Below are positions 5,701 to 56,858 of a DNA stretch of 64,000 nt, piece by piece. Numbering within the stretch: position 1 is the stretch's first letter; every line of letters starts with the position of its first letter. Where the stretch lies: contig JAPLZK010000003.1 of the NCBI GenBank assembly GCA_026395055.1, positions 99,855 to 163,854 of the forward strand, in the 5' to 3' direction. The notes under the pieces were generated by a model. The model saw only the letters and a program-made list of their open reading frames with translations, made no database searches and was not told the DNA's origin. The stretch is from Candidatus Uhrbacteria bacterium. GTDB taxonomy: Bacteria; Patescibacteriota; Patescibacteriia; UBA9934; GWF2-40-263. The position numbers and the translations under genes were made by a program.

Positions 5701-5749
5701 ACCAAACATCTGATTTGTTTTAAGTCATGTATTGTTTGGTTTTTGTTTT

Positions 5750-6808
5750 ATGCAAAGTTTTACGTTTATTTCCGCTCTTTTACTTGGGTTTGTTGCAGGA
5801 AGTTCGTCCTGTCTTGCTGTCTCTGGTGGATTGTTGTTATCCATGATTGGAAAGTCACATGACAGACTAGGCGCCATGTCAAAAAGTGCACGCATGCGTT
5901 TTACGTGGTCTTTTGTGATCGGACGTATTGCGGCGTACACCATTCTTGGTGGAGTGATTGGCATCATTGGCTCCTCGTTTACCTTTTCCCCTTGGGTAAC
6001 CGGTGTGATCACCCTTCTTGCTGCGGCGTACATGATTATCGCTGGACTCGAAATGCTGCAGATGGCGCCGAACTGGTTGAAATGCGCGATTCCACGTCCG
6101 CCAAAGTGGTTGTCGAATAAAATTCTGGATAGTGATGGAAACCCAAATCCATTCGCGCCATTCTTGCTTGGTGCCGCAACATTTTTCTTGCCATGTGGAT
6201 TCACACAATCCTTACAAATTTACGCACTGACGACGGCAAGTTTTACAACAGGCGCTTTGATTCTTGGAGCGTTTGCCATTGGAACCGCGCCTGCACTTCT
6301 TGCGCTTGGATTTGCTTCTGGTGCATTGAACGGAAAAACAGGGAAGTTTGTTCTGAAAATTGCGGGTGTCTTTATTTTATATCTTGCGATGGGAAATATT
6401 CAGAATGGACTCACGCTCCTTGGGCACCCAATCTCATTTGCCTCAGCTGCGCCTTCTGCCGGATACCGTGTCACGTCCACTGGAATTGACGCAGGATCTC
6501 CAACCACAAATACCCAAGCACCCATCTTGGAACAAAATGGTGTTCAACAGTTGCGTCTCGCCATAACAGACACAGCACCTTTTTATGCTCCATCAAATCA
6601 ACTGACCGCAACCGCTGGGAAACCGGTTCATCTTGAAATTGATGGTGTTGCAGGTGGTTGCCGTAGTGTCTTTCAAATTCCAGGCGTTGGAGTTCAAATG
6701 TTATTGAATCAAGAAAAAAATGTTGTCGATTTTACTCCAACAAAACCAGGGTCTTATCCCTTTAGTTGTTCCATGGGTATGTATCGTGGAACGTTAAACG
6801 TACTCTAA
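5750..6808 (+). CDS. polytopic permease (TauE/SafE- or CcdA-like fold, family uncertain) with C-terminal cupredoxin-like domain
   Basis: ORF 5732 (TTG) trimmed to ATG 5750; N-terminal ~230 aa multi-TM with LPCGF motif; C-terminal ~110 aa beta-rich domain ending GSYPFSCSMGMYRGTLNV; immediately upstream of copA. Confidence 0.5.
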   Translation: MQSFTFISALLLGFVAGSSSCLAVSGGLLLSMIGKSHDRLGAMSKSARMRFTWSFVIGRIAAYTILGGVIGIIGSSFTFSPWVTGVITLLAAAYMIIAGLEMLQMAPNWLKCAIPRPPKWLSNKILDSDGNPNPFAPFLLGAATFFLPCGFTQSLQIYALTTASFTTGALILGAFAIGTAPALLALGFASGALNGKTGKFVLKIAGVFILYLAMGNIQNGLTLLGHPISFASAAPSAGYRVTSTGIDAGSPTTNTQAPILEQNGVQQLRLAITDTAPFYAPSNQLTATAGKPVHLEIDGVAGGCRSVFQIPGVGVQMLLNQEKNVVDFTPTKPGSYPFSCSMGMYRGTLNVL

Positions 6809-6809
6809 T

Positions 6810-9116
6810 ATGTCCACCAAAAAAACAGTCGCGATTCGCGGCATGCATTGTGCAAGCTGCTCTCTTACGATTGAACGCGCACTCAAAAAAATGGAAGGGG
6901 TTGAATCAGCAGAGGTAAGTTATGGCACAGAAAAAGCCAAGATTGTTTTTGATGAATTGAAGGTGGATATTGCAAAGATGTCCAAAGTTATTGATCCACT
7001 TGGTTACACGCTCGTTGAAGAACAACCAGCTGCCGCGTCTATGAACATGTCTGCGGAATCCATGGGGATGTCGGAGAGTGAACATGCAGCGCATCTTGGA
7101 TTGAATCAAACCAAAAAAGAAAAGCTTGCAGAGCTTCATCAAATGAAGGTCATGTTGTTTTCTGTCATTCCACTTGCGATTGTTAGCCTCTTTCTCATGG
7201 GTTGGGATCTTTTTGCGCAATTGAAACTTGTTGCGGAGATGTCTTATGCAACAAAAGAATTCTTTCATCATCTGATGCCACTTTTTGCTACGTACACACT
7301 GTTCGTAGTTGGAAAGCCCTATCTTCTCGGATTATATCGATTTATCCGATATGGCAAGGCAAACATGGACACGCTTATTGGAATGGGAACGCTCGCGGCA
7401 TTTATTTATAGTTTTGTCGTGACGGCATTTGAAGAACAGTTGCGTCCATTTTTGAATGTGGATGTGACGTATTACGATGTAACGATTGTTGTAATCGCAT
7501 TCATTGCTCTCGGGAAGTATCTCGAGGTTCGATCTAAGTTGAAGACGGGAGATGCGATTGAGGCGTTGCTGACATTACAGGCAAAGACCGCGCTTGTTGT
7601 TCGAGATGGAATGGAAATGGAGCTTCCGCTCGACCAAGTTGTTCACGGAGATATTCTTATTGTAAAACCCGCAGGAAAGATTCCTGTCGACGGCATCGTT
7701 CTTGAGGGAGCATCGTACGTGGATGAGGCAATGATCACGGGAGAACCGATTCCTGTTTCGAAATCTGTAAACGATCGCGTGATTGCGGGAACGATGAACA
7801 CAACCGGATCAGTTACCATGCGCGCCACAAAGATTGGTGCAGAGACCATGCTCGCGAGAATTATCCAAATGGTAGAGGACGCGCAGGGAAGTAAGGCGCC
7901 TATTCAAGCGCTTGCCGACAAGATCTCTGGTGTGTTTGTTCCGATTGTTCTTGTGATTGCATTTGTCTCGCTCGGTCTTTGGCTTATCCTCGGCACGCGT
8001 GCAATTGGATTCTCACAAGCTCTGTCGATCGGCCTTACGTGTTTTGTAGGTGTGCTTGTCATTGCTTGTCCGTGTGCGCTCGGTCTTGCGACACCAACAG
8101 CAATCATTGTTGGTGTTGGCAAAGGTGCACGCGAAGGAATTCTGATTAAGGATGCTGCTACACTCGAGAAACTGCACCAAGTGAATGTGGTTGTGGTCGA
8201 TAAGACCGGAACGATTACAAAAGGAAAACCTGAGGTTGTTGGAGGAACATCTGATCACGATCATCTTTCAATTCTCGCATCTCTCGAATCAAAGTCTGAG
8301 CATCCTATCGCGACCGCAATCATTGCGCATGCGAAGGCGAACAACATTGGTGTTCAAGCTGTGACGGACTTCGAAGTCATAAAGGGGAAAGGACTTCGTG
8401 GACAGATTGTGGGAAAAGAATATTTTGCTGGGAATACAAAGCTGATGGAAGATTTGAAGTTGCTTCTCGAACGACAATTGATCGAAGCAGCAACGCTCGA
8501 GGGAAAGACGCCCGTTATTCTCGCGACACGTTCCGAGATTCTCGGAATCGTTTACGTTGCGGATGCGATTAAGCCTGAAGCGATTGAAGCCGTTCGTGCA
8601 CTGCACAAACGTGGAATCAAGGTTGTTATGCTCACGGGTGATCATCACAACACCGCACAGTTTATTGCAACACAAGCGGGCATTGATGATGTTGTGTCTG
8701 AAGTTATGCCAGCTGATAAACTTGTGAAGATCAAAGAATTGCAATCACTAGGGAACGTTGTCGCCATGGCGGGCGATGGAATCAATGATGCTCCCGCACT
8801 CGCACAAGCAGATGTCGGGATCGCGATGGGAACGGGAACCGATGTTGCGATCGAATCATCGGGAATCACATTGCTCGGCGGCGACCTCTCGAAGCTTGTG
8901 AAAGCCATTCGTCTTTCCGAGATCACGATGCGAGGAATCAAACAGAATTTATTCTGGGCATTCTTTTATAACATTGTTGGCATCCCACTTGCGGCCGGAT
9001 TATTCTACCCATTCTTCGGATTATTACTGAACCCAATTTTTGCAGGTGCAGCAATGGCATTCTCGAGCGTGAGTGTTGTAGGAAACTCCCTTCGACTAAA
9101 AACAAAAAAACTTTAG
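6810..9116 (+). CDS. copA: copper-translocating P1B-type ATPase
   Basis: N-terminal HMA GMHCASC, TM CPC motif (IACPCALGLATP), DKTGTIT phosphorylation site, GDGINDAP. Confidence 0.9.
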   Translation: MSTKKTVAIRGMHCASCSLTIERALKKMEGVESAEVSYGTEKAKIVFDELKVDIAKMSKVIDPLGYTLVEEQPAAASMNMSAESMGMSESEHAAHLGLNQTKKEKLAELHQMKVMLFSVIPLAIVSLFLMGWDLFAQLKLVAEMSYATKEFFHHLMPLFATYTLFVVGKPYLLGLYRFIRYGKANMDTLIGMGTLAAFIYSFVVTAFEEQLRPFLNVDVTYYDVTIVVIAFIALGKYLEVRSKLKTGDAIEALLTLQAKTALVVRDGMEMELPLDQVVHGDILIVKPAGKIPVDGIVLEGASYVDEAMITGEPIPVSKSVNDRVIAGTMNTTGSVTMRATKIGAETMLARIIQMVEDAQGSKAPIQALADKISGVFVPIVLVIAFVSLGLWLILGTRAIGFSQALSIGLTCFVGVLVIACPCALGLATPTAIIVGVGKGAREGILIKDAATLEKLHQVNVVVVDKTGTITKGKPEVVGGTSDHDHLSILASLESKSEHPIATAIIAHAKANNIGVQAVTDFEVIKGKGLRGQIVGKEYFAGNTKLMEDLKLLLERQLIEAATLEGKTPVILATRSEILGIVYVADAIKPEAIEAVRALHKRGIKVVMLTGDHHNTAQFIATQAGIDDVVSEVMPADKLVKIKELQSLGNVVAMAGDGINDAPALAQADVGIAMGTGTDVAIESSGITLLGGDLSKLVKAIRLSEITMRGIKQNLFWAFFYNIVGIPLAAGLFYPFFGLLLNPIFAGAAMAFSSVSVVGNSLRLKTKKL

Positions 9117-9705: not shown

Positions 9706-11535
9706 TTGCGGTATGATGTCGCAACAAAACCTATGGCTGTTCCGCTCCTCGAGGTGAACCACCTCAACAAATCTTACGGAAAACAAATCGTCGTAAAAGA
9801 CGTCTCTTTTGTGGTAACAGAAGGCCAAAAGATCGCTCTGATTGGACGAAACGGTTCTGGGAAGACAACGCTCATGAATATGCTTACGGGCGCAGAAGAG
9901 CGAGATTCTGGTGATTTCAAAGTATTCGATCGTACACGCGTCGGCGTTATCCGTCAGCATGAAGTGTTGCCAAGCGACGTCTCGGTCGCGATGTTTCTTG
10001 AACAACGAACCGGCAAGCCTGTTTGGACGATCGCGAAACTTGCATCCGAGTTCGGATTGCACACGGATCATCTCGAGAAAACAGCAGCGCAACTCTCGGG
10101 TGGTTATCAAATGCGTGTGAAGATTGTGGCCATGCTTCTTGAAGAACCAAACCTGCTTCTTCTCGACGAACCAGTGAACTATCTCGACTTGAATACGTTG
10201 CTTCTCCTCGAGCACTTCTTGAAATCGTATAAAGGAAGTTTCATTCTCGTCGCTCACGACCGCGAGTTCCTTGAAAACACCTGTACAACAACGTTCGAGC
10301 TAGAACGTGGCGAACTTACAACATACTCGGGGACGGTCGAGAATTATTTGGTGTTCAAGGAAGAGCAGCGGGAATATGCGCTCAGAACAAACAAGAAGCT
10401 TGCGCGCGAGATTGAACATCACCAAGAGTTCGTTGATCGATTTGGTGCGAAAGCAACAATGGCGTCACGCGCACAAAGCAAATCAAAGCACATTGCAAAA
10501 CTGCGAAAGAAAATTGCGGGTGTACATGCAGATCTTGCAACAACAAAGATTAAAATTTCTTGCCCAATGGTTCCGCCAGGAACGGCTGTGTATGCAGAGG
10601 AGGTTTCGGTTGGATATGGCGAGAAAGTGATCGTCGACAAAATCAATTTCCACATCAATCGTGGAGACAAGGTTGTGATTGCCGGAGAGAACGGTCAGGG
10701 AAAGACGACATTGTTGAAGACGCTCGCAGGAATTCTCGAGCCGCTTTCGGGAAAGTTAAAGTGGTGGCATCACGCGGACATTGGTTACTACGATCAGAAA
10801 GTAGACGCGACATTAATCGCAAACGAGACGGTCTTGAATTACTTGATGCGCATGGCGCCGCATATCTCGAGCGGCGAACGCATTCTCATGATGGCGGGAA
10901 ACTTTTTGTTTCGCGATGACGATCTCGAAAAGCCTACGAGCGTATTATCGGGAGGCGAACGTGCACGATTGTGTCTCGCGGGTATTTTGCTCCACGAACA
11001 TTCCGTGCTGCTTCTCGATGAGCCTACAAACCATTTAGATGTTGAAACGGCCGAAGCTCTTGCGATCGCTCTGAAACACTATGAAGGAACCGTCATCTTT
11101 GTTTCTCACGCTCGTACGTTCGTAAACGCGCTTTGCGATAAGGTTCTCGAAATCCGATTCGGTACGCTCAGAAACTATCCTGGACCGTATGAGGAGTATG
11201 TAGCGGATCTGGCTGAGTTGATGGCGATGGAAGCGGGTGACTCAAGAACCCCCTCCTTCGTCAAGGAGGGGGCAGGGGGTGGTCGTGCGCAGGAACGTAT
11301 CGAGAAGGCGGAGGCTCGCGCAAAGCTCAAAGAACTCCAGCGTGCTGTCGAGCGTCTCGAAAAGCTCATGAAAGTCCTGGACCGTGAGCGCAGTGAGATT
11401 CTCCAGTTCTATTTCGACAATCCAACCGAGTACGCGCCAGAAAAGGCAACGCGCCTTGGTGAACTTGATGAAGAGTACAAACAAAAAGAAGATGAGTGGT
11501 TCAAATTACAGGAACAGATTGAGGGGTTGTCATAA
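9706..11535 (+). CDS. ABC-F family ATPase (two ABC domains, C-terminal coiled coil)
   Basis: two Walker A (GRNGSGKTT, GENGQGKTT), two LSGG signatures, no TM domain; alternative start Met10 at 9733. Confidence 0.85.
   Translation: MRYDVATKPMAVPLLEVNHLNKSYGKQIVVKDVSFVVTEGQKIALIGRNGSGKTTLMNMLTGAEERDSGDFKVFDRTRVGVIRQHEVLPSDVSVAMFLEQRTGKPVWTIAKLASEFGLHTDHLEKTAAQLSGGYQMRVKIVAMLLEEPNLLLLDEPVNYLDLNTLLLLEHFLKSYKGSFILVAHDREFLENTCTTTFELERGELTTYSGTVENYLVFKEEQREYALRTNKKLAREIEHHQEFVDRFGAKATMASRAQSKSKHIAKLRKKIAGVHADLATTKIKISCPMVPPGTAVYAEEVSVGYGEKVIVDKINFHINRGDKVVIAGENGQGKTTLLKTLAGILEPLSGKLKWWHHADIGYYDQKVDATLIANETVLNYLMRMAPHISSGERILMMAGNFLFRDDDLEKPTSVLSGGERARLCLAGILLHEHSVLLLDEPTNHLDVETAEALAIALKHYEGTVIFVSHARTFVNALCDKVLEIRFGTLRNYPGPYEEYVADLAELMAMEAGDSRTPSFVKEGAGGGRAQERIEKAEARAKLKELQRAVERLEKLMKVLDRERSEILQFYFDNPTEYAPEKATRLGELDEEYKQKEDEWFKLQEQIEGLS
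11249..11272. repeat. GC-rich palindromic element CCCCCTCCTT-CGTC-AAGGAGGGGG, in frame inside ABC-F CDS
   Basis: perfect 10-bp inverted arms; encodes ...PSFVKEGAGGG...; near-identical copy at 34286. Confidence 0.5.
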
Positions 11536-21977: not shown

Positions 21978-23486
21978 TTATCCATGATTCATTGGTCTTG
22001 GATTGTGACCTTGATACCCTTGGCCACCGCCTTGGCGCTTTCGGTCGAAAGGCTTTGAAGCGGTACGTGATTGACTAGAGGTAGTTGATGGACTAGATGA
22101 TGAAGCGCCATCCTTTTTGATATCTTTGTATTGGAATACTTTTTCTTTTGGTTTTCCGCCGTAGGAGCTGTCTTTGGATTTTCCGTAAGAGTTTCCTCCA
22201 CGTGAAGTTCCGTAAGAGCCTCCCTGCCTGCCGGCAGGCGAGGCGCTGCGTGATCCACCTCCGCTGCCGTATCCGCCGCTGCGTCCACCTTTTTGATAAG
22301 ATCCACGACCTCCGCGACGATCATCGCGTTCTGGTTCGTAAACTGGTGCTGCACGGTGAGCGGGTAATTCTGGAAGAGGGGAAACGTTAATCTTTGTACG
22401 AATCAAGCGTTCAATGATTTGCAAATCACGCTTTTGATCTGGTGTTGCAAACGAAATAGCTTTTCCGGTTCGTCCTGCGCGACCTGTTCGACCAATACGG
22501 TGAACGTAATCTTCCGCTTGGTCTGGCAAATCAAAGTTGATAACGAGTTCAATATTTGTGACGTCAATTCCGCGAGATGCAATGTCTGTTGCAACGAGGA
22601 CGCGCGTTCTTCCAGATTTAAATCCAGCGAGCGCCATCTTGCGTTGGTTCAAAGATTTGTTTGAGTGAATTTCGGAAACGGTATGTCCCATTTTCTCAAT
22701 CACGGTTGTGATCTTTTTTGCGCCGTGTTTTGTTCGGCTAAAGACCAAAACAGATCCTTTATAATCGCTAAGTATTTTATCAAGGAGACGCAACTTGTCG
22801 CCTTTTCCAACCATGAAGAATTCTTGTTCCACGTTTGCGTTCGCTGTTCCTTGGCGAGCCATTTCAATACGAAGTGGCTTTTTCATGTATTTTTCTGCGA
22901 TTTGAGAAATCTTTTCTGGCATGGTTGCAGAGAACAACATGGTTTGGCGTTCTTTTGGTACTGCCGCAAGAATCTTTTTGATTTGTGGTTCAAATCCCAT
23001 GTCGAGCATTCGATCTGCTTCATCAAGGACCAAAACTTTTACGTTTTGCAAACCAAGAATTTTTTGCTCCATGTGATCAAGTAAACGACCTGGAGTTGCA
23101 ACAATAACATGTGGCTTATTGCGAAGTGCTTTGATCTGCAAACTCATGGCAGCTCCACCAATAAGAACAGCGGTTCTGAGACCAAATGGTTTTGAAAGCT
23201 TTTGAAGGGTTTCTTCAACTTGAAGCGCAAGTTCACGTGTAGGAAGCAAAATAAGCCCCTGACCTTTGTTCACGGAAATTTGCTGCATCATTGGAATAGA
23301 AAACGCAAGTGTTTTTCCGGTTCCTGTTTGGGCGATTCCGATAAGGTCTTCACCTGTTACTCCGATTGGAATCGCTTTTTCTTGAATAGGGGTTGGATTG
23401 TGAAATCCAAGTTTACTCAAGTGGGTAAGAAGATCTGGAAAGATCCCGAGTCCGTCAAAAGACGGTTTTTTTTCTGTCTCTGTCAT
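21978..23486 (-). CDS. DEAD-box ATP-dependent RNA helicase with Gly/Arg/Ser-rich C-terminal tail
   Basis: Q-motif, AQTGTGKT, PTRELA, DEAD, SAT, HRIGRTGRAG; ~120-aa RGG/GS low-complexity tail. Confidence 0.85.
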   Translation of the reverse strand: MTETEKKPSFDGLGIFPDLLTHLSKLGFHNPTPIQEKAIPIGVTGEDLIGIAQTGTGKTLAFSIPMMQQISVNKGQGLILLPTRELALQVEETLQKLSKPFGLRTAVLIGGAAMSLQIKALRNKPHVIVATPGRLLDHMEQKILGLQNVKVLVLDEADRMLDMGFEPQIKKILAAVPKERQTMLFSATMPEKISQIAEKYMKKPLRIEMARQGTANANVEQEFFMVGKGDKLRLLDKILSDYKGSVLVFSRTKHGAKKITTVIEKMGHTVSEIHSNKSLNQRKMALAGFKSGRTRVLVATDIASRGIDVTNIELVINFDLPDQAEDYVHRIGRTGRAGRTGKAISFATPDQKRDLQIIERLIRTKINVSPLPELPAHRAAPVYEPERDDRRGGRGSYQKGGRSGGYGSGGGSRSASPAGRQGGSYGTSRGGNSYGKSKDSSYGGKPKEKVFQYKDIKKDGASSSSPSTTSSQSRTASKPFDRKRQGGGQGYQGHNPRPMNHG

Positions 23487-23763
23487 AAGATAAGGCAGCC
23501 AAAGACGCTTATGGAAACCAAAAGGTGACCAAAGGCCATGGAAGCGTTAAAAAAATTACGACCCGTTTTTCCATCAGGTCGTAATACAGACAAGAGGCCA
23601 CGAGTCATGCTCGAATGATGTCGAGCGAAATTATGTTGAAAGACTATCAGGAAAAGCCCGCTCTGTCAATGAATCGAGGTGAATCCAGAGTAATCATTGA
23701 CATTATGCGCCTTTTGACGTAGGTTCATCTCTTCATCATTGGTGGTGAAGACGTGAGGAACAT

Positions 23764-24153
23764 ATGAAAAAGGCTTGGATTGCTGGTGCGATTGTTCTCA
23801 TCACTGCGGGCGTGAGCCTGTGGAGCTATAATAAAGCGGTCGGACTCGCAGTATTTGTGGGCTCCAAGGCGGATGCCGAGGAGAATTTGGCAACGTACGC
23901 GAAGGACATGAACGTCAAAGTGGTGGGCAAGAGCTGCGCGGAGACGGATTCGGATGGAGATCACTACATTTCCTGCACGGCACGTTTTCAGGAAACCGAT
24001 GGCGGACCTGTGACGGAGCGCTATCTCGAATGTGGTTCTGGCGCATGGGGTGCGCGTACGGGCGGGTGTAAGCCCAAGCTTGGCGCTTACCCAATGATGC
24101 CTGCTCCCGCAGCGGTTGCTCCGGCACCTGTGCCGCCATCCGCGCAGAAGTAA
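23764..24153 (+). CDS. small Cys-rich exported protein, paralog A (TM-anchored), DSDGD motif
   Basis: N-terminal TM; C-x12-C-x18-C-x11-C pattern with TDSDGDHYISC; paralogous to 24592..24939. Confidence 0.5.
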   Translation: MKKAWIAGAIVLITAGVSLWSYNKAVGLAVFVGSKADAEENLATYAKDMNVKVVGKSCAETDSDGDHYISCTARFQETDGGPVTERYLECGSGAWGARTGGCKPKLGAYPMMPAPAAVAPAPVPPSAQK

Positions 24154-24156
24154 GTC

Positions 24157-24462
24157 ATGAGAAGTCTCGTCATTTTTCTTCTCGTTCTCGTAAGTTGCGG
24201 AAAACCTCGGTCTTCGAATGAAACCGCCCATTCAAATATTCACCGTTACGTTCATGGGACCCATCTGCAGATCAACATGATCAACTGTAATGAAGAAGGT
24301 CCAACGAACGATGATCATGTTTACTGTGTTGCGATGGTTCGCGATGAAATCGAAGGAAGCGAATCTGAGGTTCATCTCAAATGTGATCAGACACGCATGG
24401 TCGGATCCAAATATCGTCAACGCCACGAATCAACGGGCTGCGTTCTCAATATGCCGCCTTAG
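24157..24462 (+). CDS. small Cys-rich lipoprotein, divergent paralog B
   Basis: signal peptide with lipobox LVSC; same C-x12-C-x18-C spacing as neighbours. Confidence 0.45.
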   Translation: MRSLVIFLLVLVSCGKPRSSNETAHSNIHRYVHGTHLQINMINCNEEGPTNDDHVYCVAMVRDEIEGSESEVHLKCDQTRMVGSKYRQRHESTGCVLNMPP

Positions 24463-24471
24463 TCTTTCTCA

Positions 24472-24498
24472 ATCGAGCAGATGCTCGATTTTTTGTTT
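24472..24498 (+). terminator. intrinsic terminator after paralog B
   Basis: ATCGAGCA-GA-TGCTCGAT followed by TTTTTTG. Confidence 0.5.
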
Positions 24499-24504
24499 GA
24501 TCTC

Positions 24505-24533
24505 TTGACAATTTGGGATATTTCAGGTATATT
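24505..24533 (+). promoter_or_regulatory. sigma70-like promoter (TTGACA-17-TATATT) for pilin-like gene
   Basis: consensus -35, 17-bp spacer, -10 TATATT; AGGAGG SD 5 nt before GTG start. Confidence 0.5.
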
Positions 24534-24591
24534 CCGACGTCTGAATCGTGAGCAGTTTGCGAGGAGGACGTGGTTTTTTCAGGAGGTTCCC

Positions 24592-24939
24592 GTGAAGAAA
24601 GGTTTTACGCTGATCGAACTCATGATCGTTCTTGCGATCATCTCAATCCTTGCAGTCGTGGTGGGTGGCATGTTCCGTGGCTGTTCGGCTGTTTCCGGTA
24701 GCAAGCAGGAGGCCATGGCCACCATGCGCACCTACGCGACGGAAATGGGTTGGAAGATGGTTGGTGGCACGTGTGCCGACACCGATTCCGACGGTGACGG
24801 TTACATCAGCTGTACCATCAATGTCCAGGAAGTCGAAGGTGCGCCTCCGGTCGCAAAAGCCCTTCAGTGCGCTTCCGGCGCCGCGATTTCTCGTACGGGC
24901 GGCTGTAAGCTGGCCCAAGGTGTCTATCAGCAGCAGTAG
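24592..24939 (+). CDS. type IV pilin-like (prepilin N-terminal methylation motif) Cys-rich protein, paralog C
   Basis: GTG start after AGGAGG; KKGFTLIELMIVLAIISILA class III signal; C-terminal domain TDSDGDGYISC... paralogous to 23764 gene. Confidence 0.6.
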   Translation: MKKGFTLIELMIVLAIISILAVVVGGMFRGCSAVSGSKQEAMATMRTYATEMGWKMVGGTCADTDSDGDGYISCTINVQEVEGAPPVAKALQCASGAAISRTGGCKLAQGVYQQQ

Positions 24940-24971
24940 TTTCTCCGGCGATTCACTTCGCCAAACTCAAA

Positions 24972-24997
24972 ACGAGCTATCAGAGCTCGTTTTTTTC
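24972..24997. terminator. bidirectional intrinsic terminator (pilin-like / cfa)
   Basis: ACGAGCT-ATCAG-AGCTCGT flanked by A-run and T7. Confidence 0.6.
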
Positions 24998-24998
24998 T

Positions 24999-26117
24999 TT
25001 ATCGAATAGATTGATACCCACCAACAACGCCTTTTTTTGAAAGCACAATTTGCCACAACTGATTTCGTCGAGAGCGAAATGAAGCGGCGCATGTGAGGAG
25101 ATAAAATTTCCACATGCGGTAAAAACGTTCGCTGTATTGATCTTTTAGAAGTGGCCACGCGTTCTCAAAGTTCGCAAACCAATGCATGAGCGTCGTGTCG
25201 TAATCCGCACTGAAGTTGTGAATGTCTTCGATGATAAACAAGGGTTCAACGGTTTTTGTGATTTGCGCGAGCGAGGGAAGCATGGAGTTTGGAAAGATGT
25301 ATTTTTCTATCCATGGATCTGTTGATGTGACGGATTGTGTTGCACCAATTGTGTGAAGTAAAAAGAGTCCGTCATCTTTTAAACATCTGTTTGCAACTCG
25401 CATGTAGTCGCGATAATTTTTATATCCAACGTGTTCGAACATGCCAAGAGAAACAATGTGATCAAATTTTTCATCGACTTCACGGTAATCTTGATAGCGT
25501 AATTCAACATCTAGTCCCTCGCAAGATTTTTGTGCAAGGGCGAGTTGTTCTTGGGAAATGGTAATGCCGACTACATGCGCGCCATATTTTTCTGCGGCAA
25601 ATTTTGCAAAGCTGCCCCAACCACAGCCGATATCAAGAACACGATCACCAGCCTTTAATCCAATTTTTCGACAGACGAGATCTAGTTTTGCTTCTTGAGC
25701 AGAGTCAAGATCGGATGCATTTGGCCAGTATCCACAGGTATAGACCATTCGTTTGTCGAGCATGGCCTCATATAATTTATTTCCGACATCGTAATGCACT
25801 TCACCAACTTCGAATGCGCGTTTTTGCGATTGGCGATTGAGAAGAGATGATGCAAGCAAAAGCGCAATCTCTTTTCTGTTTTTTCGTAGTCTAGATTGAA
25901 CATCGATAGAAAAAATTCTGGTAATGAATTCGTCAATGGCTGCACATTCCCACCAGCCGTCCATGTAGCTTTCGCCGAGGCCAAGTGAACCTTGTGACAG
26001 AACACGGTTATAAAATCGTTCATTCAATACGTGAATATCCCAGGGATTATTTCCATTCATGGTAATTCCTGTTCCGAGAAGGAGTGTTTGAATTTGGGAT
26101 TGTGTTTTTGAAGACAT
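24999..26117 (-). CDS. cfa: cyclopropane-fatty-acyl-phospholipid synthase family SAM methyltransferase
   Basis: VLDIGCGWG SAM motif, CFA synthase-like length and C-terminal region. Confidence 0.8.
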   Translation of the reverse strand: MSSKTQSQIQTLLLGTGITMNGNNPWDIHVLNERFYNRVLSQGSLGLGESYMDGWWECAAIDEFITRIFSIDVQSRLRKNRKEIALLLASSLLNRQSQKRAFEVGEVHYDVGNKLYEAMLDKRMVYTCGYWPNASDLDSAQEAKLDLVCRKIGLKAGDRVLDIGCGWGSFAKFAAEKYGAHVVGITISQEQLALAQKSCEGLDVELRYQDYREVDEKFDHIVSLGMFEHVGYKNYRDYMRVANRCLKDDGLFLLHTIGATQSVTSTDPWIEKYIFPNSMLPSLAQITKTVEPLFIIEDIHNFSADYDTTLMHWFANFENAWPLLKDQYSERFYRMWKFYLLTCAASFRSRRNQLWQIVLSKKGVVGGYQSIR

Positions 26118-26211
26118 AAGAATGCTTAGTACAAGTACTCTAGCACATCTTGGCTAAATGCAACCATTCTAGGTAGAATACGATGTAATTGTTGAATGAA
26201 TAATTATTTAT

Positions 26212-27504
26212 ATGTCTTTATTTAAAAAAGAATTATTGAAAGAAGGAGACAATCGATCATTTTTGGTCGGACTCTTGGGTGGCGTCTGCGGAAGCGTTAT
26301 GACGTTTGTGCTTGTATTTATTGTCATGCACACAATGATCTCAAGATTTCAGCCGCTTTTTAACTCTGTCTCAAGACCAATTTCTTCGCTTCCCATGTTT
26401 GCAGGAACAAAAGAGTTGTCAAAGAATGTTTCAAAAAACGTAAAGCAATCACAAGACTCTGCAGGATTTCAGCACTCACCTGATGTGAGCGATATTGTGG
26501 CAAAGGTGAATCCAGCCGTTGTCTCTATTGTTATTTCAAAAGACGTTCCCGTCATGGAGCAATATTTTGTAAACCCGTTTGGAAGCAATAGCCCATTTGG
26601 AAATGTTCAAATTCCACAATACCGACAGCACGGTACACAATCCAAAGAGGTGGGGGGTGGTTCCGGGTTTATTATTTCCACAGATGGATACATTGTAAGT
26701 AATGCGCACGTCGTGAATGATCCAAATGCTAAGTACACCGTCTTTTTAAATGGGGGAAAAAAATATGACGCACAGGTAACGGCGTTAGACGACACGCTTG
26801 ATATCGCTCTTTTAAAAATTGATGCAAAAGATCTTCCGTACGTAGAATTTGGAAATTCAGATCAACTTAAGCTTGGGCAGTCCGTCATCGCAATCGGAAA
26901 TGCGCTCGGGGAATTTCGTAACACCGTCTCAACAGGCGTTGTCTCTGGTCTTGCTCGATCCATCACGGCACAAGACGGACAAGGTTCCGAGAATCTCGAC
27001 AATCTGATCCAAACGGATGCAGCTATTAATCCAGGAAACTCCGGTGGACCATTGTTGAATCTCGATGGCCAAGTTGTTGGGGTGGATGTGGCAATTGCAC
27101 AAGGTTCCGAGAACGTCGGATTTGCATTGCCAATCAACATGATTAAGTCCTCGATTGAATCCATGAAAACAAACGGACGAAGCATTCATCCATTCCTTGG
27201 CATCCGCTATATTCCAATCACGGCTGATTTGCAGAAACAAAATCATTTGAGTGTAGATTACGGAATCCTGGTTGTGCGCGGTGAACAACAAACGGACCTC
27301 GCCGTTGTTCCTGGTTCTCCAGCAAATAAGGCAGGAATTGTTGAATACGATATTATTTTAGAGGCAGATGGAAAAAAGATTGATGCTGATCATCCGCTCA
27401 CAACGCTCATGAGACAAAAGAAAGTGGGAGATCAACTTAAACTAAAAGTGGTCCACGGCGGAGTACAAAAGGATGTCGTGGTTACACTAGAGGAAGCAAA
27501 ATAA
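26212..27504 (+). CDS. htrA: HtrA/DegP family serine protease with PDZ domain
   Basis: N-terminal TM, catalytic H/D/S (GNSGGPLLN), C-terminal PDZ. Confidence 0.85.
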   Translation: MSLFKKELLKEGDNRSFLVGLLGGVCGSVMTFVLVFIVMHTMISRFQPLFNSVSRPISSLPMFAGTKELSKNVSKNVKQSQDSAGFQHSPDVSDIVAKVNPAVVSIVISKDVPVMEQYFVNPFGSNSPFGNVQIPQYRQHGTQSKEVGGGSGFIISTDGYIVSNAHVVNDPNAKYTVFLNGGKKYDAQVTALDDTLDIALLKIDAKDLPYVEFGNSDQLKLGQSVIAIGNALGEFRNTVSTGVVSGLARSITAQDGQGSENLDNLIQTDAAINPGNSGGPLLNLDGQVVGVDVAIAQGSENVGFALPINMIKSSIESMKTNGRSIHPFLGIRYIPITADLQKQNHLSVDYGILVVRGEQQTDLAVVPGSPANKAGIVEYDIILEADGKKIDADHPLTTLMRQKKVGDQLKLKVVHGGVQKDVVVTLEEAK

Positions 27505-38702: not shown

Positions 38703-38724
38703 AACTCGAGAATCTTCTCGAGTT
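38703..38724. terminator. hairpin terminator shared by tatD (+) and hypothetical gene (-)
   Basis: AACTCGAGA-ATCT-TCTCGAGTT with A6 on + side. Confidence 0.45.
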
Positions 38725-39616
38725 AGGGGCCGACGTAGTAACGGATGTAGTCGGTGGATTTTGGATCTGCGCCGTTTAGGAGGTCGTAGATGCATTTCTG
38801 AAGGAGGCTTCCGTGCGGTTTGAATTCAGGACCTGTACAACCTTCTTTCTGTTCACGCGCACGACGTTTCCATCCCTCAAAGTGTTGTTCGCCCCATTTG
38901 CGTGTATCGGGATCTTCATCATCGCACGCGGCAAAGGCTTCTTCCATTTTCTGTCGTATCATTTGATAGTATTCGTCCTTGTGGAGTCTTTGAATCCAAA
39001 TGGGAACATTCAGATTTTTGACTACAGGAGGAACATCGATCACGAGTGGCTCGAAAGGGGGAGGTATCTCAAGATCTGGTGAGGGGCCGTCTGTGTCCTT
39101 ATCCGCCATGGTGGTCTTTTTTTTGCCCCCCGTTTTTGCGGCAGCGAGCATACCTTCCAGATTGGCTGGATTCACGGCACGAATATAGGGAACACGTCCT
39201 TCGTCACGCTCAGCATCTGTTTGAGGTTTGGGTATGACCATTTCAGGAATACCTCTCTGTGCTGCCCTGAGGGCATCAATATTGATTGTTCCTCCGGCGG
39301 GTTTGGCGATTTCCATCGGAATTGGTGGAGGCTCGGCCTCGGCTTCCGGTGGTTCTTCCAGCTCTTCCATAGATTCACTCTCGGTCAAGTCCGCAAGGAG
39401 TGCTTTCTGGGCTGTATGATCGAGGCTGTCGACGTATAGTGAACGATCTTCCGCAAAGGTGCGGTATCGATTTACGGCACTTTCCGCAATACTCATGAAT
39501 TGTTGATCATCCAGAGCATCAATGTTTTGATTTGCTTGGAAAAGCTCGAGAGCCTCCTGGGTTGCAAGACTTGGGTCGTCTCCAAAGAGCTGATTATATG
39601 CTTCTGCGAGTTCCAT
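38723..39616 (-). CDS. hypothetical acidic, Pro-rich protein
   Basis: ORF to 39664 trimmed to MELAEAYNQ; EELEEPPEAEAEPPPIP tracts; no recognised domain; divergent from P1. Confidence 0.4.
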   Translation of the reverse strand: MELAEAYNQLFGDDPSLATQEALELFQANQNIDALDDQQFMSIAESAVNRYRTFAEDRSLYVDSLDHTAQKALLADLTESESMEELEEPPEAEAEPPPIPMEIAKPAGGTINIDALRAAQRGIPEMVIPKPQTDAERDEGRVPYIRAVNPANLEGMLAAAKTGGKKKTTMADKDTDGPSPDLEIPPPFEPLVIDVPPVVKNLNVPIWIQRLHKDEYYQMIRQKMEEAFAACDDEDPDTRKWGEQHFEGWKRRAREQKEGCTGPEFKPHGSLLQKCIYDLLNGADPKSTDYIRYYVGP

Positions 39617-39748
39617 GGAACCTCCTGTAGGTGTGTTTGAGAAGCTTGTGAATATAGCATGCAAAACTCATTTTGTCAACGAAAAGTGACAGGTATTTGG
39701 AAATAATCATTCTGCTCTTTATTTGTCAGGACTTTACATCAATTTTTT

Positions 39749-39867: not shown

Positions 39868-41397
39868 ATGAGTCGTTTGAGCAAATTGCTTGCGGATCTT
39901 GGCATGAACATTCCGATCGTTGATGAAACGACGGGTACGAGTTCGAATACGGGCACGGCGCTTGCCATGCCACAGAAGAACGCTGCCGCAAAGCGCGTCA
40001 TTGACGAAGGGGTCGACATGGCCTCAATAGTATACGCGGACCTCCCTCCGGAGGTGGCGCGTAGCCGCATGCGCGAACGTCTCGTCGAAGTCGGCGAAAT
40101 GGTGATCTTCCCAATCGACTTCACTGCGGGTGTTGTGGAGAAGGAAGATGGTAGCCCGGATCTGAAGATCTATGCCACCATGAACATTCCGGGCGTTGGG
40201 CACGTGGAAGTGCAGCCGCTCATCACGCTTGGCGTGAATTACATCGGTCAGACGAAGGAAGGCAAGTTCCGGACGTTGCAAACGTTCCAGTGCTTGGTCT
40301 TCCGGCCGAGGTTCGTGGATCCGAAGAAGCCGAAGGAAAATCCGTACAAGGCGTTTCCGATCAACTTCCTCAGTCCGAGTGTCCTCGACACCTGGAATTT
40401 CATTGCGACCCAGATGCCGAGCCTGAATTGGCCAACGATTGATCACATTCCGAATACTCTCCGCAAGGCGGGAACGCGGACGCTCACGTTTGCGCCACGG
40501 TGTCTGAAGACGTTGTCGTTCACGAATGACAAGCGTGTGAAGCGCAAGGGTCAGTGGGTGAATGAGCCTGTGACGGATTCGTTCCGGATCGTGGGTTACC
40601 TCTTTGGCCAGATGCTGAAGTTGCACGCGTTGTCGGATGAACCGGTCACTCCCGCGCTCGACGCAGATGGAAAGCAGCGTGAGAACAAGGAAGGCTATCA
40701 GCTGGTCGAGCTCGATCGGCGGGAATACGTCTGGAGCGTGAAGCTTGGCGAAGGTTCGCTCGAGTTGTCGCTCATTGATCTCGCGGAGAACTACAAGGGT
40801 GACGCGCGCGTTCCGATCGTGGAAGTGCGCAATGAAATGGATCCGTTCGCGGTCCTTGGCACGACGCCGCTCAAGATGGACATCAATACGGTTGGTGATC
40901 TCACGCGTGCGTGGGTCATGCGTGTGTACGATGAAACGAATCCGCTGTACGTGTATGCACGTGACGCGGGTCTCGTGAACATTCAGGACTCGCAGGAGAC
41001 CATGCGGCCGATCATCGAAGATCTCGGCCGTACGGCTGTGGAAAAGGGAATTGAGGATATGAAGGCGACCTACGCCGAAGTTACCTCGCGTCTCTCGACC
41101 GCATCGGACAAGCCGAGTATTGAGGAAGTGTTGAATGGGCGCCTGCTCAAGGCGATCCTGTTTCGCATGAACAAGGACGATGCTGCGGCTACGTGGATTG
41201 ATTCCAAGATCGAAGGCAGCTTTGATCCGAAGAGTCCGTTCCACATGGCAGTACGTCGGTACGTGATCGAGATGATCGCGACGAAAGCGAATTACAAGGA
41301 TCCGGAGCCGAAGAAGCCCGAAGCTCCGAAACCTCCTGTGGTCGAAGCGGCAGTTCTGCCTCCTACGACCGAGAACGCGGCGACTCCGCCTGCGTAA
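39868..41397 (+). CDS. large conserved hypothetical protein P1 (paralog of 41519..43300)
   Basis: 509 aa; shared blocks with P2 (QCLVF...KAFP, NPLY, QTM..I.EDL, FDPKSP); Pro-rich C-terminal tail; no enzymatic motif recognised. Confidence 0.55.
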   Translation: MSRLSKLLADLGMNIPIVDETTGTSSNTGTALAMPQKNAAAKRVIDEGVDMASIVYADLPPEVARSRMRERLVEVGEMVIFPIDFTAGVVEKEDGSPDLKIYATMNIPGVGHVEVQPLITLGVNYIGQTKEGKFRTLQTFQCLVFRPRFVDPKKPKENPYKAFPINFLSPSVLDTWNFIATQMPSLNWPTIDHIPNTLRKAGTRTLTFAPRCLKTLSFTNDKRVKRKGQWVNEPVTDSFRIVGYLFGQMLKLHALSDEPVTPALDADGKQRENKEGYQLVELDRREYVWSVKLGEGSLELSLIDLAENYKGDARVPIVEVRNEMDPFAVLGTTPLKMDINTVGDLTRAWVMRVYDETNPLYVYARDAGLVNIQDSQETMRPIIEDLGRTAVEKGIEDMKATYAEVTSRLSTASDKPSIEEVLNGRLLKAILFRMNKDDAAATWIDSKIEGSFDPKSPFHMAVRRYVIEMIATKANYKDPEPKKPEAPKPPVVEAAVLPPTTENAATPPA

Positions 41398-41518: not shown

Positions 41519-43300
41519 TTATTGTTTGTCTGTCCTGTATGCAACTTTGTATTCACCTCTATTCAGGATGGATCCGTGGTTCACACGCATGGGTGGGCCC
41601 GGATCATCCTCTCCTGCGGGTGGAATGACGCCATTCATTCCTGTCGGATCCCAAACGGTTGGATCAACGAATGGCAGTTCTTCATCGACGATGAGATCGA
41701 CGGTCGTCGCTTCTGCTTCGATGAACTCTTCGAGGTCATCGTCGCCCAAAATGATTTCTTCGTCGGCTGTATGCGGAACCGCTGTAGGTTTTGGCATTGG
41801 GACAAATGCATCGCTTGCGCGAAACGCCGGAGAACTTGATTCGCGATGACTCACGGGAAGTGAGGAGATCGGAATCTGTTTTGGAACGGGGGTGAGCTCT
41901 GGAATCAGGATGCTGACTTGAGAGATTTCTGGAATGGGTGGCGGTGTTACTCGTCCATACGAATTGATGAGCCATGAACGCAAGTGCATGAGCAGCGGAC
42001 TTTTTGGATCAAAGGGCATGTCGAGGACACGACTGATCCAAAGAGACGCAGCGTCTTCTGGTTGATTCATGCGCAGTGCGGCAACACGAATGTCTCTTCC
42101 GCCGAGCATGGCTTCTGCTGTTGGCTTATTTGGCGCAATCGTGAGCATGCGAATCATTTGAACAGAGGCTGCGGAGATTTGCAGTTTGATCTGTTTGATC
42201 GCGTCGAGCATCAGATCTTCAAGGATGGCATGCATGGTCTGCTGCGGATCACTCGGAAAGATCAGTTTCATTTCGATACCCGCAAGATACAACGGGTTTC
42301 GATGATCGAACGCTCGATTGAGATAGCCTCGCGCCGTTTGATCGATCGTTTTCCAATCAACCTTGAGCGGCGAGGTGTTGAGAACGGCGTATGGGTTGAT
42401 TGCGTCATGTACATCAAGAACGGCAAGACGCTGGTCTATTTTGACTTTGCCCTCTGGACCAAGCCAAAACACTTCAAGTGGACCTTCATTCAGTTTCACG
42501 CGGAAGATGTGTTTTGAAACGAATCGTTTTTCTCCATCCACGTCATCCGGTTCCGGAATTTGTGATTTGGAAGAGAGAAACAGCTTTTGTCCAAAGCGTG
42601 TTCCAATCAAGAGGCGTTTGCGAGATCCTCGTTCACGCTTGAACAATGGATCAAACGTTGGAATGAATTCAACAACGCGAACGCCGGGGCGCATCAAATT
42701 GTTGCGGATCACTTCAATGAGTGGCCAAAGCTCGTCTTTGTTTTTCGTAACGGCATTGCGACGTTTTGCAACGTCGTTCCAAACGTGAATTGTGCTTGGA
42801 TCCGCAAGTCCGAGCGGGAACGCTTTGAATGGCCCGGTCTTTGTGTTCGATTTGAAGACAAGACACTGGATGGAACCACCGCTTGTGTATTTCCCATTTT
42901 CGATCGCAATCAAATATTCGGGTCCGACATAGATGAGCGGAACGATTTCTTGTTCCGCGTCATAGCCGGGAAGGGTCGCTTTCGCGAATACGTGAACGTC
43001 CCCATTCGGTTGTTCACGACCTTCGAAGATGAGATTGGCAATATGTGCTCGACCATTCAATTCTCGCACAAGGCGTGCGCGCATGTCTGATCGTGCAGCT
43101 TCACGATTCGGATTTGGATCCACGAGTGCGGCGCGATTGATCGCGTCTGCGATCAATCGATTCGCTCCCGGAACACTGTCTGGGATCGCGGGAAGGTAAG
43201 CGCTTTTTCGGCCAGACAATTCTGGACTGATTTCCTGCACGTGCGGGATCGAAAGCCCGAGTTCGAGCAGGGTGACAGCGCTCAGCTGCGTCTCATCCAT
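41519..43300 (-). CDS. large conserved hypothetical protein P2 (paralog of P1) with long Pro/acidic C-terminal tail
   Basis: 593 aa; ~25% identity to P1 over ~450 aa; convergent orientation. Confidence 0.55.
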   Translation of the reverse strand: MDETQLSAVTLLELGLSIPHVQEISPELSGRKSAYLPAIPDSVPGANRLIADAINRAALVDPNPNREAARSDMRARLVRELNGRAHIANLIFEGREQPNGDVHVFAKATLPGYDAEQEIVPLIYVGPEYLIAIENGKYTSGGSIQCLVFKSNTKTGPFKAFPLGLADPSTIHVWNDVAKRRNAVTKNKDELWPLIEVIRNNLMRPGVRVVEFIPTFDPLFKRERGSRKRLLIGTRFGQKLFLSSKSQIPEPDDVDGEKRFVSKHIFRVKLNEGPLEVFWLGPEGKVKIDQRLAVLDVHDAINPYAVLNTSPLKVDWKTIDQTARGYLNRAFDHRNPLYLAGIEMKLIFPSDPQQTMHAILEDLMLDAIKQIKLQISAASVQMIRMLTIAPNKPTAEAMLGGRDIRVAALRMNQPEDAASLWISRVLDMPFDPKSPLLMHLRSWLINSYGRVTPPPIPEISQVSILIPELTPVPKQIPISSLPVSHRESSSPAFRASDAFVPMPKPTAVPHTADEEIILGDDDLEEFIEAEATTVDLIVDEELPFVDPTVWDPTGMNGVIPPAGEDDPGPPMRVNHGSILNRGEYKVAYRTDKQ

Positions 43301-47447: not shown

Positions 47448-47452
47448 GTTTT

Positions 47453-47541
47453 GTGTCATTGCGAGCGAAGCGCGGCAATCTTTCTAGGGAGTTTATCTCA
47501 AGGAAAAAGATTGCTTCGTCGTCGAACTCCTCGTAATGACA
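47453..47541. repeat. intergenic hairpin/repeat before atpG (TTGTCATTGCGAG...GCAATCTTT // AAAGATTGCTTCGTCGTCGAACTCCTCGTAATGACAA)
   Basis: outer and inner inverted arms; right half repeats the element before atpA. Confidence 0.4.
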
Positions 47542-47551
47542 ATAAAAATAT

Positions 47552-49856
<2,305 letters not shown>

Positions 49857-55398: not shown

Positions 55399-55399
55399 T

Positions 55400-56857: not shown

Positions 56858-56858
56858 T

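Follow-up and report, generated by a model that had tools for sequence, protein, structure and literature searches.

Organization of the three-gene locus

The window analysed here is a 64,000-nucleotide stretch of a contig from a Candidatus Uhrbacteria metagenome-assembled genome (JAPLZK010000003.1, positions 99,855 to 163,854), and within it three consecutive open reading frames, ORF1, ORF2 and ORF3, encode small cysteine-rich proteins that join copies of one domain to three different export or anchoring signals. The trio lies on a single strand, between a DEAD-box helicase gene transcribed divergently from it and a cyclopropane-fatty-acid-synthase-like gene that converges on it. The features of the locus are the following (aa, amino acids; nt, nucleotides).

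23764..24153, + strand: ORF1, 129 aa, with an N-terminal hydrophobic anchor (residues 4-21), a four-cysteine domain and a Pro/Ala-rich tail of about 20 aa
23947..23973, + strand: ORF1 loop DSDGDHYIS, between Cys58 and Cys71, read from the sequence and the alignment
24157..24462, + strand: ORF2, 101 aa, with a lipoprotein-type signal (MRSLVIFLLVLVS followed by C) and a highly diverged copy of the domain
24187..24198, + strand: ORF2 lipobox L-V-S-C, residues 11-14, read from the sequence and matched by a PS51257-like rule
24471..24500, + strand: terminator-like hairpin with T-run, at the end of the ORF1-ORF2 operon
24505..24533, + strand: sigma-70-type promoter of ORF3 (TTGACA, 17 nt, TATATT; 11/12 consensus matches)
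24581..24586, + strand: Shine-Dalgarno sequence AGGAGG, 5 nt before the ORF3 GTG at 24592
24592..24939, + strand: ORF3, 115 aa, GTG start; prepilin-type precursor with leader, hydrophobic helix to residue 28, Cys31 and a four-cysteine domain
24682..24684, + strand: ORF3 Cys31 (FRGC), the fifth cysteine, at the outer end of the hydrophobic helix
24784..24810, + strand: ORF3 loop DSDGDGYIS, of the Dx[DN]xDG calcium type, between Cys61 and Cys74
24969..25003, + strand: terminator-like hairpin (10-bp stem) with T-run, 3' of ORF3

ORF1 and ORF2 form a translationally coupled operon, with a gap of 3 nt between the ORF1 stop and the ORF2 start. Because a terminator, a promoter, a Shine-Dalgarno sequence, ORF3 and a further terminator follow ORF2 in that order, the locus resolves into a bicistronic ORF1-ORF2 operon and a monocistronic ORF3, the latter being its own transcription unit with a promoter upstream and terminators on both sides. 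The ORF coordinates, the consensus promoter (TTGACA-17-TATATT), the AGGAGG sequence and the GTG start reported in a first-pass annotation of this DNA were all reproduced. A hairpin with T-run also stands at the equivalent place in L001, a groundwater contig described below, matching the 3' end of the ORF1-ORF2 operon. Moreover, the ORF3 -35 box, the promoter and a 5' untranslated region of about 60 nt (GTCTGAATCGTGA...GTTT.CGAGGAGGACGT) are kept between window positions 24505-24591 and L001 positions ~9870-9955. This conserved stretch may be a regulatory leader; no Rfam family was matched in 23300-25200.

In public records ORF1 appears as MCX6714815.1, 'hypothetical protein NTX72_03300', while the ORF3 product has the same sequence as P0001, which its source record calls 'type II secretion system protein'. 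On the opposite strand, a 168-aa antisense ORF (window 23725-24231, -) overlies ORF1 together with the beginning of ORF2; rather than a gene, this frame is most likely a side effect of high local G+C.

Three diverged copies of one domain

As the first-pass annotation had proposed, the three proteins compare as tandem paralogs that share one cysteine-rich domain and differ in their export or anchoring signals, and pairwise and profile comparisons agree on this. At the sequence level ORF1 and ORF3 are unambiguous paralogs, with 42% identity over 113 aa in a pairwise comparison (E=6e-28) and 53% across the 76-aa domain. Both have the cysteine spacing C-x12-C-x18-C-x11-C, and both contain the motif TDSDGD(H/G)YISCT. 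The ORF2 spacing is C-x12-C-x18-C-x18-C, and since NEEGPTNDDHVYC occupies the place of the motif, ORF2 is without DxDxDG. The combined spacing C-x12-C-x18-C-x(11-18)-C and the motif in two of the ORFs, both part of the earlier description, are exact in the translations.

ORF2 is the most distant member, and its weak pairwise scores, with 22% identity to ORF1 over 58 aa in BLASTP (E=3e-5) and no BLASTP match to ORF3, would be expected if it lay outside the family, its cysteine spacing being a chance likeness or the frame non-coding; the missing DSDGDG motif and its absence from public gene calls point the same way. Profile methods argue otherwise. Alignment of the ORF2 pair with the family profile by hhalign gives a probability of 94.3% and E=9.7e-8 over 75 columns. 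In addition, a family hidden Markov model (HMM) built without ORF2 and run against 4,520 six-frame ORFs retrieves ORF2 at E=1.2e-6, the next unrelated sequence standing at E=0.26 and ORF1 at E=1.1e-25 in the same scan. The cysteine likeness, whose loss under alignment statistics would have counted against the first-pass annotation, survives in both comparisons. When 52 sequences are aligned, each of the four domain cysteines in ORF2 occupies an invariant column, and the ORF2 lipobox cysteine shares a column with the fifth cysteine found in other members. The AlphaFold model of ORF2 (predicted local distance difference test score, pLDDT, 75.9) has the same order of secondary-structure elements as that of ORF3, though it leans on the family sequences that dominate its alignment. 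By these comparisons, ORF2 is a highly diverged third copy of the domain.

Conservation and selection across related genomes

The trio is conserved in related genomes. The 46.8-kb groundwater contig L001 is syntenic with the window, carrying MsrA, MsrB, the helicase, counterparts of ORF1, ORF2 and ORF3, the cyclopropane-fatty-acid-synthase-like gene and HtrA in order, and its three orthologues are 62-70% identical to the window trio. The three genes also occur together on two short contigs, L002 and L003. A further locus, L024, has counterparts of ORF1 and ORF2 at the equivalent site, but is without the ORF3, cyclopropane-fatty-acid-synthase-like and HtrA genes. The ORF1-ORF2 pair is thus the core of the arrangement and ORF3 belongs to a separate indel block, because L024 keeps the pair only. 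Comparison of L024 6385-6790 with window 24463-27504 places ORF3, the cyclopropane-fatty-acid-synthase-like gene and the HtrA-like protease in one indel that comes and goes as a unit.

ORF2 lies at 24157-24462 in the window, 9527-9838 in L001 and 6388-6705 in L024, and gene callers left it uncalled in all three, that is, in every genome examined; a collection of 15 billion proteins holds only a 61-aa fragment and one 103-aa orthologue. Its reading frame, lipobox and cysteines are nevertheless held in these three diverged genomes, with proportions of nonsynonymous and synonymous differences of 0.20-0.27 (pN) and 0.66-0.75 (pS) and a ratio of nonsynonymous to synonymous substitution rates (dN/dS) of 0.15-0.21 where computable. 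For ORF1 (against L024) and ORF3, dN/dS is 0.09 and 0.15, respectively, with synonymous sites near saturation. All three ORFs are under purifying selection, and ORF2 is a real gene; the earlier reservation that it might be a non-coding frame lacking conservation is answered by its retention. The reading that places ORF2 outside the family is largely refuted already and appears very improbable.

The third-codon-position G+C content (GC3) is 0.60 in ORF1, 0.655 in ORF3 and 0.44 in ORF2, against 0.35-0.43 in neighbouring genes. A high GC3 might be taken as proof of recent horizontal transfer of ORF1 and ORF3, and it is insufficient for that purpose: the L001 orthologue of ORF3 (9956-10321) has a GC3 of 0.648 despite near-saturated synonymous divergence, so the bias is maintained and is not the residue of a recent transfer. 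Expression-linked codon bias is one possible source, and would fit the near-consensus promoter.

A prepilin leader, a lipobox and a plain anchor

The three N-termini are of different types. ORF3 begins with MKKG|FTLIELMIV..., that is MKKG|FTLIELMIVLAIISILAVVVGGMF, in which Gly at -1, Phe at +1, Glu at +5 and about 20 hydrophobic residues make up a class III prepilin leader. The class III signal claimed for ORF3 in the first-pass annotation is borne out by scores above curated cut-offs for both PF07963 (35.3 bits; cut-off 21.2) and TIGR02532 (38.1 bits; cut-off 16.3). Neither model matches ORF1 or ORF2.

The ORF2 signal consists of a basic n-region, a nine-residue hydrophobic core and the lipobox L-V-S-C (MRSLVIFLLVLVS-C14), and agrees with the lipobox definition used here (basic n-region, h-region, [LVI]-[ASTVI]-[GAS]-C). 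Both ORF2 and its L024 orthologue fit the PS51257-like regular expression. The previously proposed LVSC lipobox is upheld by the orthologues, in which it reads LVGC or VVGC. Its cysteine, at position 14, lies at the short end of the expected 15-35 range.

ORF1 starts with MKKAWIAGAIVLITAGVSLW... and has the hydrophobic stretch of 17-18 residues that had been described as its anchor. This description can be refined, since the segment looks like a degenerate leader of the ORF3 type: it is equal in length to the ORF3 leader, aligns with it residue for residue and shares its 'KK + small residue' start, while Gly(-1), Phe(+1) and Glu(+5) are absent (KKA|WIAGA). On the alignment, we infer that the ORF1 anchor is a decayed prepilin leader that would now work as a signal-anchor. 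The Pro/Ala-rich C-terminal tail of about 20 residues is likewise carried by the ORF1 orthologues.

Predicted fold and the calcium-type loop

The AlphaFold2 model of ORF3, computed from a 96-sequence alignment, has a mean pLDDT of 89.2. It comprises a hydrophobic helix (residues 7-34), a Gly/Ser break, an amphipathic helix (38-52) and four strands (55-61, 71-79, 87-94 and 105-107), with the DSDGDG loop positioned between strands 1 and 2. The domain of about 75 residues is accordingly predicted to consist of one amphipathic helix packed on a four-stranded antiparallel sheet, and its four invariant cysteines presumably form two disulfides.

The Dx[DN]xDG pattern is present in ORF3 (DSDGDG), and across the family every motif column is either invariant or conserved to 90% or more. 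It is broken in ORF1 (DSDGDH, the last Gly being replaced by His) and in ORF2 (PTNDDH). The calcium motif noted in the first pass therefore stands in part: the DxDxDG loop is EF-hand-like, and its terminal Gly is lost in ORF1. When the domain alone is used as a profile against the PDB, the sole sequence matches are EF-hand loops, the best being EhCaBP (E=0.0025). Ca2+ is bound in a nearly identical manner by Dx[DN]xDG loops set in at least 12 different structural surroundings, among them the strand-flanked calcium blades and PilY1, a pilus factor (PMC3123361). From the sequence, Ca2+ binding by ORF3 is a reasonable expectation and most likely occurs; for ORF1, with DSDGDH, it is doubtful, and for ORF2 it is unlikely.

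Several known modules were considered for this domain and rejected. An EF-hand is at odds with the model, which has no helix-loop-helix and places the loop between two strands, and with the loop itself, which has no Glu at position 12; EF-hand_1 is touched weakly by 5/36 members, with a best E of 0.0099, below threshold. The resemblance to Excalibur that had been suggested earlier was not sustained: neither the three ORFs nor 36 family domains match PF05901 at E<=1, and DSDGDGY[IV]SC has its Cys one residue later than DxDxDGxxCE and no following Glu. Sublancin, ShK and toxin-like peptides gave noise-level Pfam matches only.

A large family with exchangeable export signals

Single-sequence searches of 5.8 billion proteins returned only 16 relatives of ORF3 and 2 of ORF2. 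The family proved far larger by profile, with 329 matches in a profile search and, in an HMM search of 1.84 billion cluster representatives, 1,540 at E<=1e-3 and 783 at E<=1e-10; the resulting family size of at least 783 counts clusters at 50% identity. Members are 90-130 aa long, and their four cysteines and the D-x-D-x-D motif are invariant or nearly so, with the consensus C-x3-DSDGDGY[IV]SC...EC...GC[RK]. The domain has no covering match in Pfam, NCBIfam, PHROG, PADLOC or PDB; among the models of the first four libraries, only those for the pilin leader hit.

A class III-type leader, defined by Gly or Ala at -1, Glu at +5 and a hydrophobic stretch, is present in 164 of 237 sampled members (69%). 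Gly occupies position -1 in 154 of these 164 and Phe position +1 in 113. The other 73 of the 237 have lipoprotein-type signals or plain hydrophobic anchors. Among 310 non-redundant domains, 37 are strictly lipoprotein-type and scattered through the family, and their closest prepilin-type relatives differ from case to case (47-64% domain identity). Because lipoprotein-type members have many different prepilin-type nearest relatives, the signal type has switched several times. The first-pass annotation had regarded the reuse of one module on several export routes as unusual here; instead, it recurs across the family.

A second feature of these N-termini is a cysteine directly after the hydrophobic helix, which occurs in 183/237 members (77%) and in 123/164 of those with the prepilin motif, including Cys31 of ORF3. 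It lies a median of 27 residues after Gly-1 and aligns with the lipobox cysteine of ORF2 and of lipoprotein-type members. The residue preceding it is Gly, Ser or Ala in 82% (flanking positions, 31-60%), and position -3 is mostly hydrophobic. In 30%, however, position -2 holds Arg or Lys, residues atypical of a lipobox at that site. This fifth cysteine may explain the easy interconversion of signal types, and in prepilin-type members it may be a dual signal or form an intermolecular disulfide.

The same cysteine could be read further, as the true lipobox residue of ORF3 and its kin, so that most prepilin-type members would be lipoproteins with long signal peptides, or would be routed either way. 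Its frequency, its small-residue context and its alignment with genuine lipobox cysteines are what such a reading would predict. It is harder to reconcile with the basic residue at -2, seen also in ORF3, whose FRGC fails the PS51257-like rule, and with the 41 prepilin-type members that have no such cysteine; in addition, no paper on a lipidated type IV pilin was found, and the cysteine could make an intermolecular disulfide instead. We regard lipidation of the prepilin-type members as quite improbable.

Multi-copy arrangements are rare, being restricted among 128 loci to the Uhrbacteria lineage and two unrelated metagenome loci. In L053 (5592-6345) an anchored copy with a decayed calcium loop is followed directly by a prepilin-type copy, and L128 carries a lipoprotein-type and a prepilin-type copy 4 kb apart (1565-2056 and 5890-6336). 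Because the pairing recurs in all three, it hints that anchored and pilin forms work together.

Phage and cellular carriers

In two scans of IMG/VR the family turned up on 23 distinct viral contigs; four have lengths of 363-479 kb and another seven measure 100-200 kb. Phage-like neighbourhoods surround the family gene in L005, L006, L020-23, L047 and L048. Six long contigs that were inspected are phage-like, with dense co-directional arrays made up of small unannotated genes, and their recognisable genes encode Prim-Pol, DNA methylases, a PD-(D/E)XK nuclease, RNA ligase, EF-Tu, NAD synthase, a sigma factor, dCMP deaminase and Band_7 proteins. Across 30 long metagenome loci, the large neighbours belong mainly to phage primase, helicase, exonuclease, methyltransferase, thymidylate-synthase and RNA-ligase PHROGs, and a few are clearly cellular (SpoVR/DUF444, SecDF). 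Clearly cellular contexts comprise the Uhrbacteria lineage, L004 and L007. The family is thus recurrently phage-borne, a statement that carries no phage-to-cell ratio. Among PHROGs, only the pilin leader was matched.

Two giant-phage-like loci carry, 6-8 kb upstream of the family gene, a gene with a Band_7/SPFH domain (L020 1934-3154; L048 1611-3539). L020 also has EF-Tu, NAD synthase and RNA ligase genes.

These carriers bear on two further explanations. The leader might be a pure membrane tether, a mere N-in/C-out anchor that builds no filament, in which case the phage genes would be envelope 'morons' of the superinfection-exclusion or receptor-masking kind and the Uhrbacteria copies domesticated relics. 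Tethers that are interchangeable and have been switched repeatedly are consistent with this, as are the single-copy genes amid auxiliary and replication genes on phage-like contigs. ORF3 itself is moron-like in having its own promoter, its own terminator and a GC3 well above that of its neighbours, and it is missing from the syntenic L024. A plain anchor, however, has no need of the Gly(-1), Phe(+1) and Glu(+5) that are strongly conserved in 69% of members, and ORF1, which is now a plain anchor, has lost all three; the high GC3, being kept in the L001 orthologue, is no simple sign of recent transfer. We consider the tether explanation unlikely.

Alternatively, the Uhrbacteria trio might be an adhesin or sensor set, one binding module displayed by three routes on different surface layers, as the first-pass annotation had supposed. 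All three proteins are exported or anchored, the Pro/Ala-rich tail of the ORF1 orthologues could be a spacer, and type IV pili serve host attachment in bacteria of the candidate phyla radiation (CPR; PMC9894109, PMC11623550). The proposal is nevertheless unsupported by domain matches, as searches of Pfam, NCBIfam and PDB gave no likeness to an adhesin or sensor domain; at about 75 aa the domain is small and shows no obvious binding module, and lytic-looking giant phage contigs as carriers are hard to square with an adhesin. An adhesin or sensor set is therefore improbable.

Two other candidates were set aside. A spanin pair, in which ORF1 and ORF2 would be the inner-membrane and lipoprotein partners of a lysis system, disagrees with their homologous globular domains, the chromosomal location and the lack of a lysis cassette. 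The Pam pili of CPR bacteria (bioRxiv 10.64898/2026.03.03.709456) are unrelated, having Ig-like folds and assembling by donor-strand exchange.

Proposed role at the cell envelope

Our favoured reading, about evenly poised between right and wrong, is that the three genes belong, as a cluster of paralogs, to a hitherto undescribed family of pilin-derived exported domains whose envelope role is tied to type IV pili. Processing, Ca2+ binding, disulfides and biological role are what we infer in the following scheme. All three proteins would insert N-in/C-out, with the domain facing outward. Since CPR cells are in general taken to have no outer membrane, the three products would share one compartment. 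Within it, ORF3 would be cut after Gly4 by a prepilin peptidase and be able to enter a type IV filament machine, ORF2 would be held by an N-terminal lipid anchor at the outer face of the cytoplasmic membrane, and ORF1 would remain a bitopic membrane protein by way of its decayed prepilin helix. Family-wide retention of Glu5 inside the membrane helix is the strongest argument that prepilin-type members really use the pilin machinery; ORF1 lost this residue together with the rest of the pilin signature.

Two disulfides would stabilise the domain, as would Ca2+ in members with an intact loop, and the domain would be the functional unit throughout the family, with the tether as an exchangeable part. 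At the cell envelope it might modulate or block pilus or surface function. A specific role in pilus interference is a tentative suggestion, more doubtful than the general envelope role. In phages, the proteins would block or re-purpose pili or another surface structure, and by analogy with known phage envelope proteins their role may be superinfection exclusion or host take-over. The Uhrbacteria set would be a long-resident, domesticated one, possibly made up of a pilin and two membrane-bound partners.

Several results weigh against this proposal. Structure prediction, suggested in the first pass as a check on a shared fold, did yield ORF3 and ORF2 models with a common order of elements, and Foldseek gave no significant neighbour for either: the best E values were 1.5 in PDB and 0.17 in BFVD for the ORF3 model and 0.23 in PDB for the ORF2 model, and no pilin was retrieved. 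The likeness to a pilin fold is for this reason a topological resemblance only. Classical pilins have a continuous alpha1, whereas the N-terminal helix predicted here is interrupted at residues 35-37. Ca2+ binding cannot be essential for all three proteins, since ORF1 has DSDGDH and the motif is gone from ORF2. Neither a pilus assembly gene nor a second prepilin is found in the 64-kb window of the 367,614-bp contig, and no pilus assembly family is among the 25 most frequent Pfam families near other loci. Models that depend on polymerisation are weakened by the lipoprotein-type and plain-anchor members, which cannot serve as subunits of a filament. As regards phages, tblastn with three family members found none in 50,697 GenBank phage records, and PADLOC has no match to the family; with no cultured phage carrier and no PADLOC match, the exclusion role is an argument by analogy. 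The cellular-genome scan used the narrower pattern DSDGDGY[IG]S, which affects the balance between phage and cell.

A more specific version would make these 'switchable' envelope proteins. In about half of members a prepilin site and a lipobox-like cysteine flank one helix, so that a precursor, or a lineage after very few mutations, might be sent either to a type IV filament or to a lipid anchor; phages, giant ones among them, would insert such mini-pilins into the host pilus machine to disable or re-purpose it, and Uhrbacteria would have fixed pilin, lipoprotein and plain anchor as interacting partners. We offer this version as a long shot.

Comparison with known systems

Type IV pilins and the pseudopilins of type II secretion (e.g. 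ComGC, GspG) provide the closest parallel. ORF3 and about 69% of the family share with them a basic leader ending in Gly, Phe+1, Glu+5 and a helix of about 20 residues, and ORF3-type members likewise have a helix-on-sheet module, a total length of about 110 aa and Cys pairs near the C-terminus. The Ca2+ site of the major pseudopilin GspG is a precedent for a stabilising Ca2+ in pseudopilins. Unlike pilins, the family has a globular part that lacks detectable sequence or Foldseek similarity to solved pilins, a Gly/Ser linker that interrupts the N-terminal helix, a fifth cysteine after this helix and no assembly genes nearby, and one third of its members swap the leader for a lipoprotein signal or plain anchor. 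With Dx[DN]xDG calcium-loop proteins the family shares its near-invariant D-S-D-G-D-G-Y-[IV]-S, which fits the motif and is strand-flanked in the model, as in calcium blades; unlike in EF-hand and Excalibur domains, the loop is clamped between two invariant cysteines.

Among phage proteins, Llp of T5 and Cor of phi80/N15 are phage-encoded exclusion lipoproteins. ORF2 and many phage-borne members share with them the n-region, h-region and [LV]-x-[GAS]-C signal, and the phage-carried members are likewise small and envelope-located; this may be an analogy of function, as no sequence relationship to Llp, Cor or any PHROG extends beyond the leader. Host type IV pili are also the target of Tip (D3112), Aqs1 (DMS3) and PfsE (Pf phages), which disable them by acting on PilB or PilC and are not themselves prepilins. 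Being small, phage-encoded and pilus-directed, they would suggest by analogy why a phage might carry a pilin look-alike, although no homology with the family was found.

The prepilin leader, the lipobox and the calcium-type loop are already known elements. What is new is a domain family found in no library, the repeated exchange of its export signals, the frequent presence of both a prepilin site and a lipobox-like cysteine on one helix, and carriage by phages, including giant ones. No description of the family was found in the literature on phage-encoded prepilins or prepilin-plus-lipobox proteins. Type IV pilins are very widespread, but beyond model organisms the catalogue of their globular parts is poor, and a sizeable unannotated family is now delimited; a conserved gene, ORF2, that automatic annotation had missed is also recovered. 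Should the pilus link hold, the family would offer a handle on phage manipulation of host pili or envelope, and on how CPR bacteria, whose episymbiotic life is pilus-dependent, build their surface.

Other features of the window

At window 5732-9116, a DsbD_2 (CcdA-like) membrane protein fused to a cupredoxin-like domain adjoins a CopA-type heavy-metal P-type ATPase with an HMA domain. The two look like partners in copper handling and thiol redox chemistry, which may matter for disulfide-rich exported proteins. Further along, window 51858-58415 encodes Mrp-antiporter/complex-I-like subunits (Proton_antipo_M x2, NADHdh) and a fused 30-kDa/49-kDa subunit that weakly matches NiFe hydrogenase; together these resemble a membrane-bound hydrogenase-like module of group 4, and such a module is notable in a CPR genome. 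Window 45945-49856 holds ATP synthase alpha/beta-like genes. Three ORFs of 313, 509 and 593 aa, at window 38723-39664 (-), 39868-41397 (+) and 41519-43300 (-), have no Pfam match at E<=1e-5, and the 313-aa ORF carries a DKDTDG motif.

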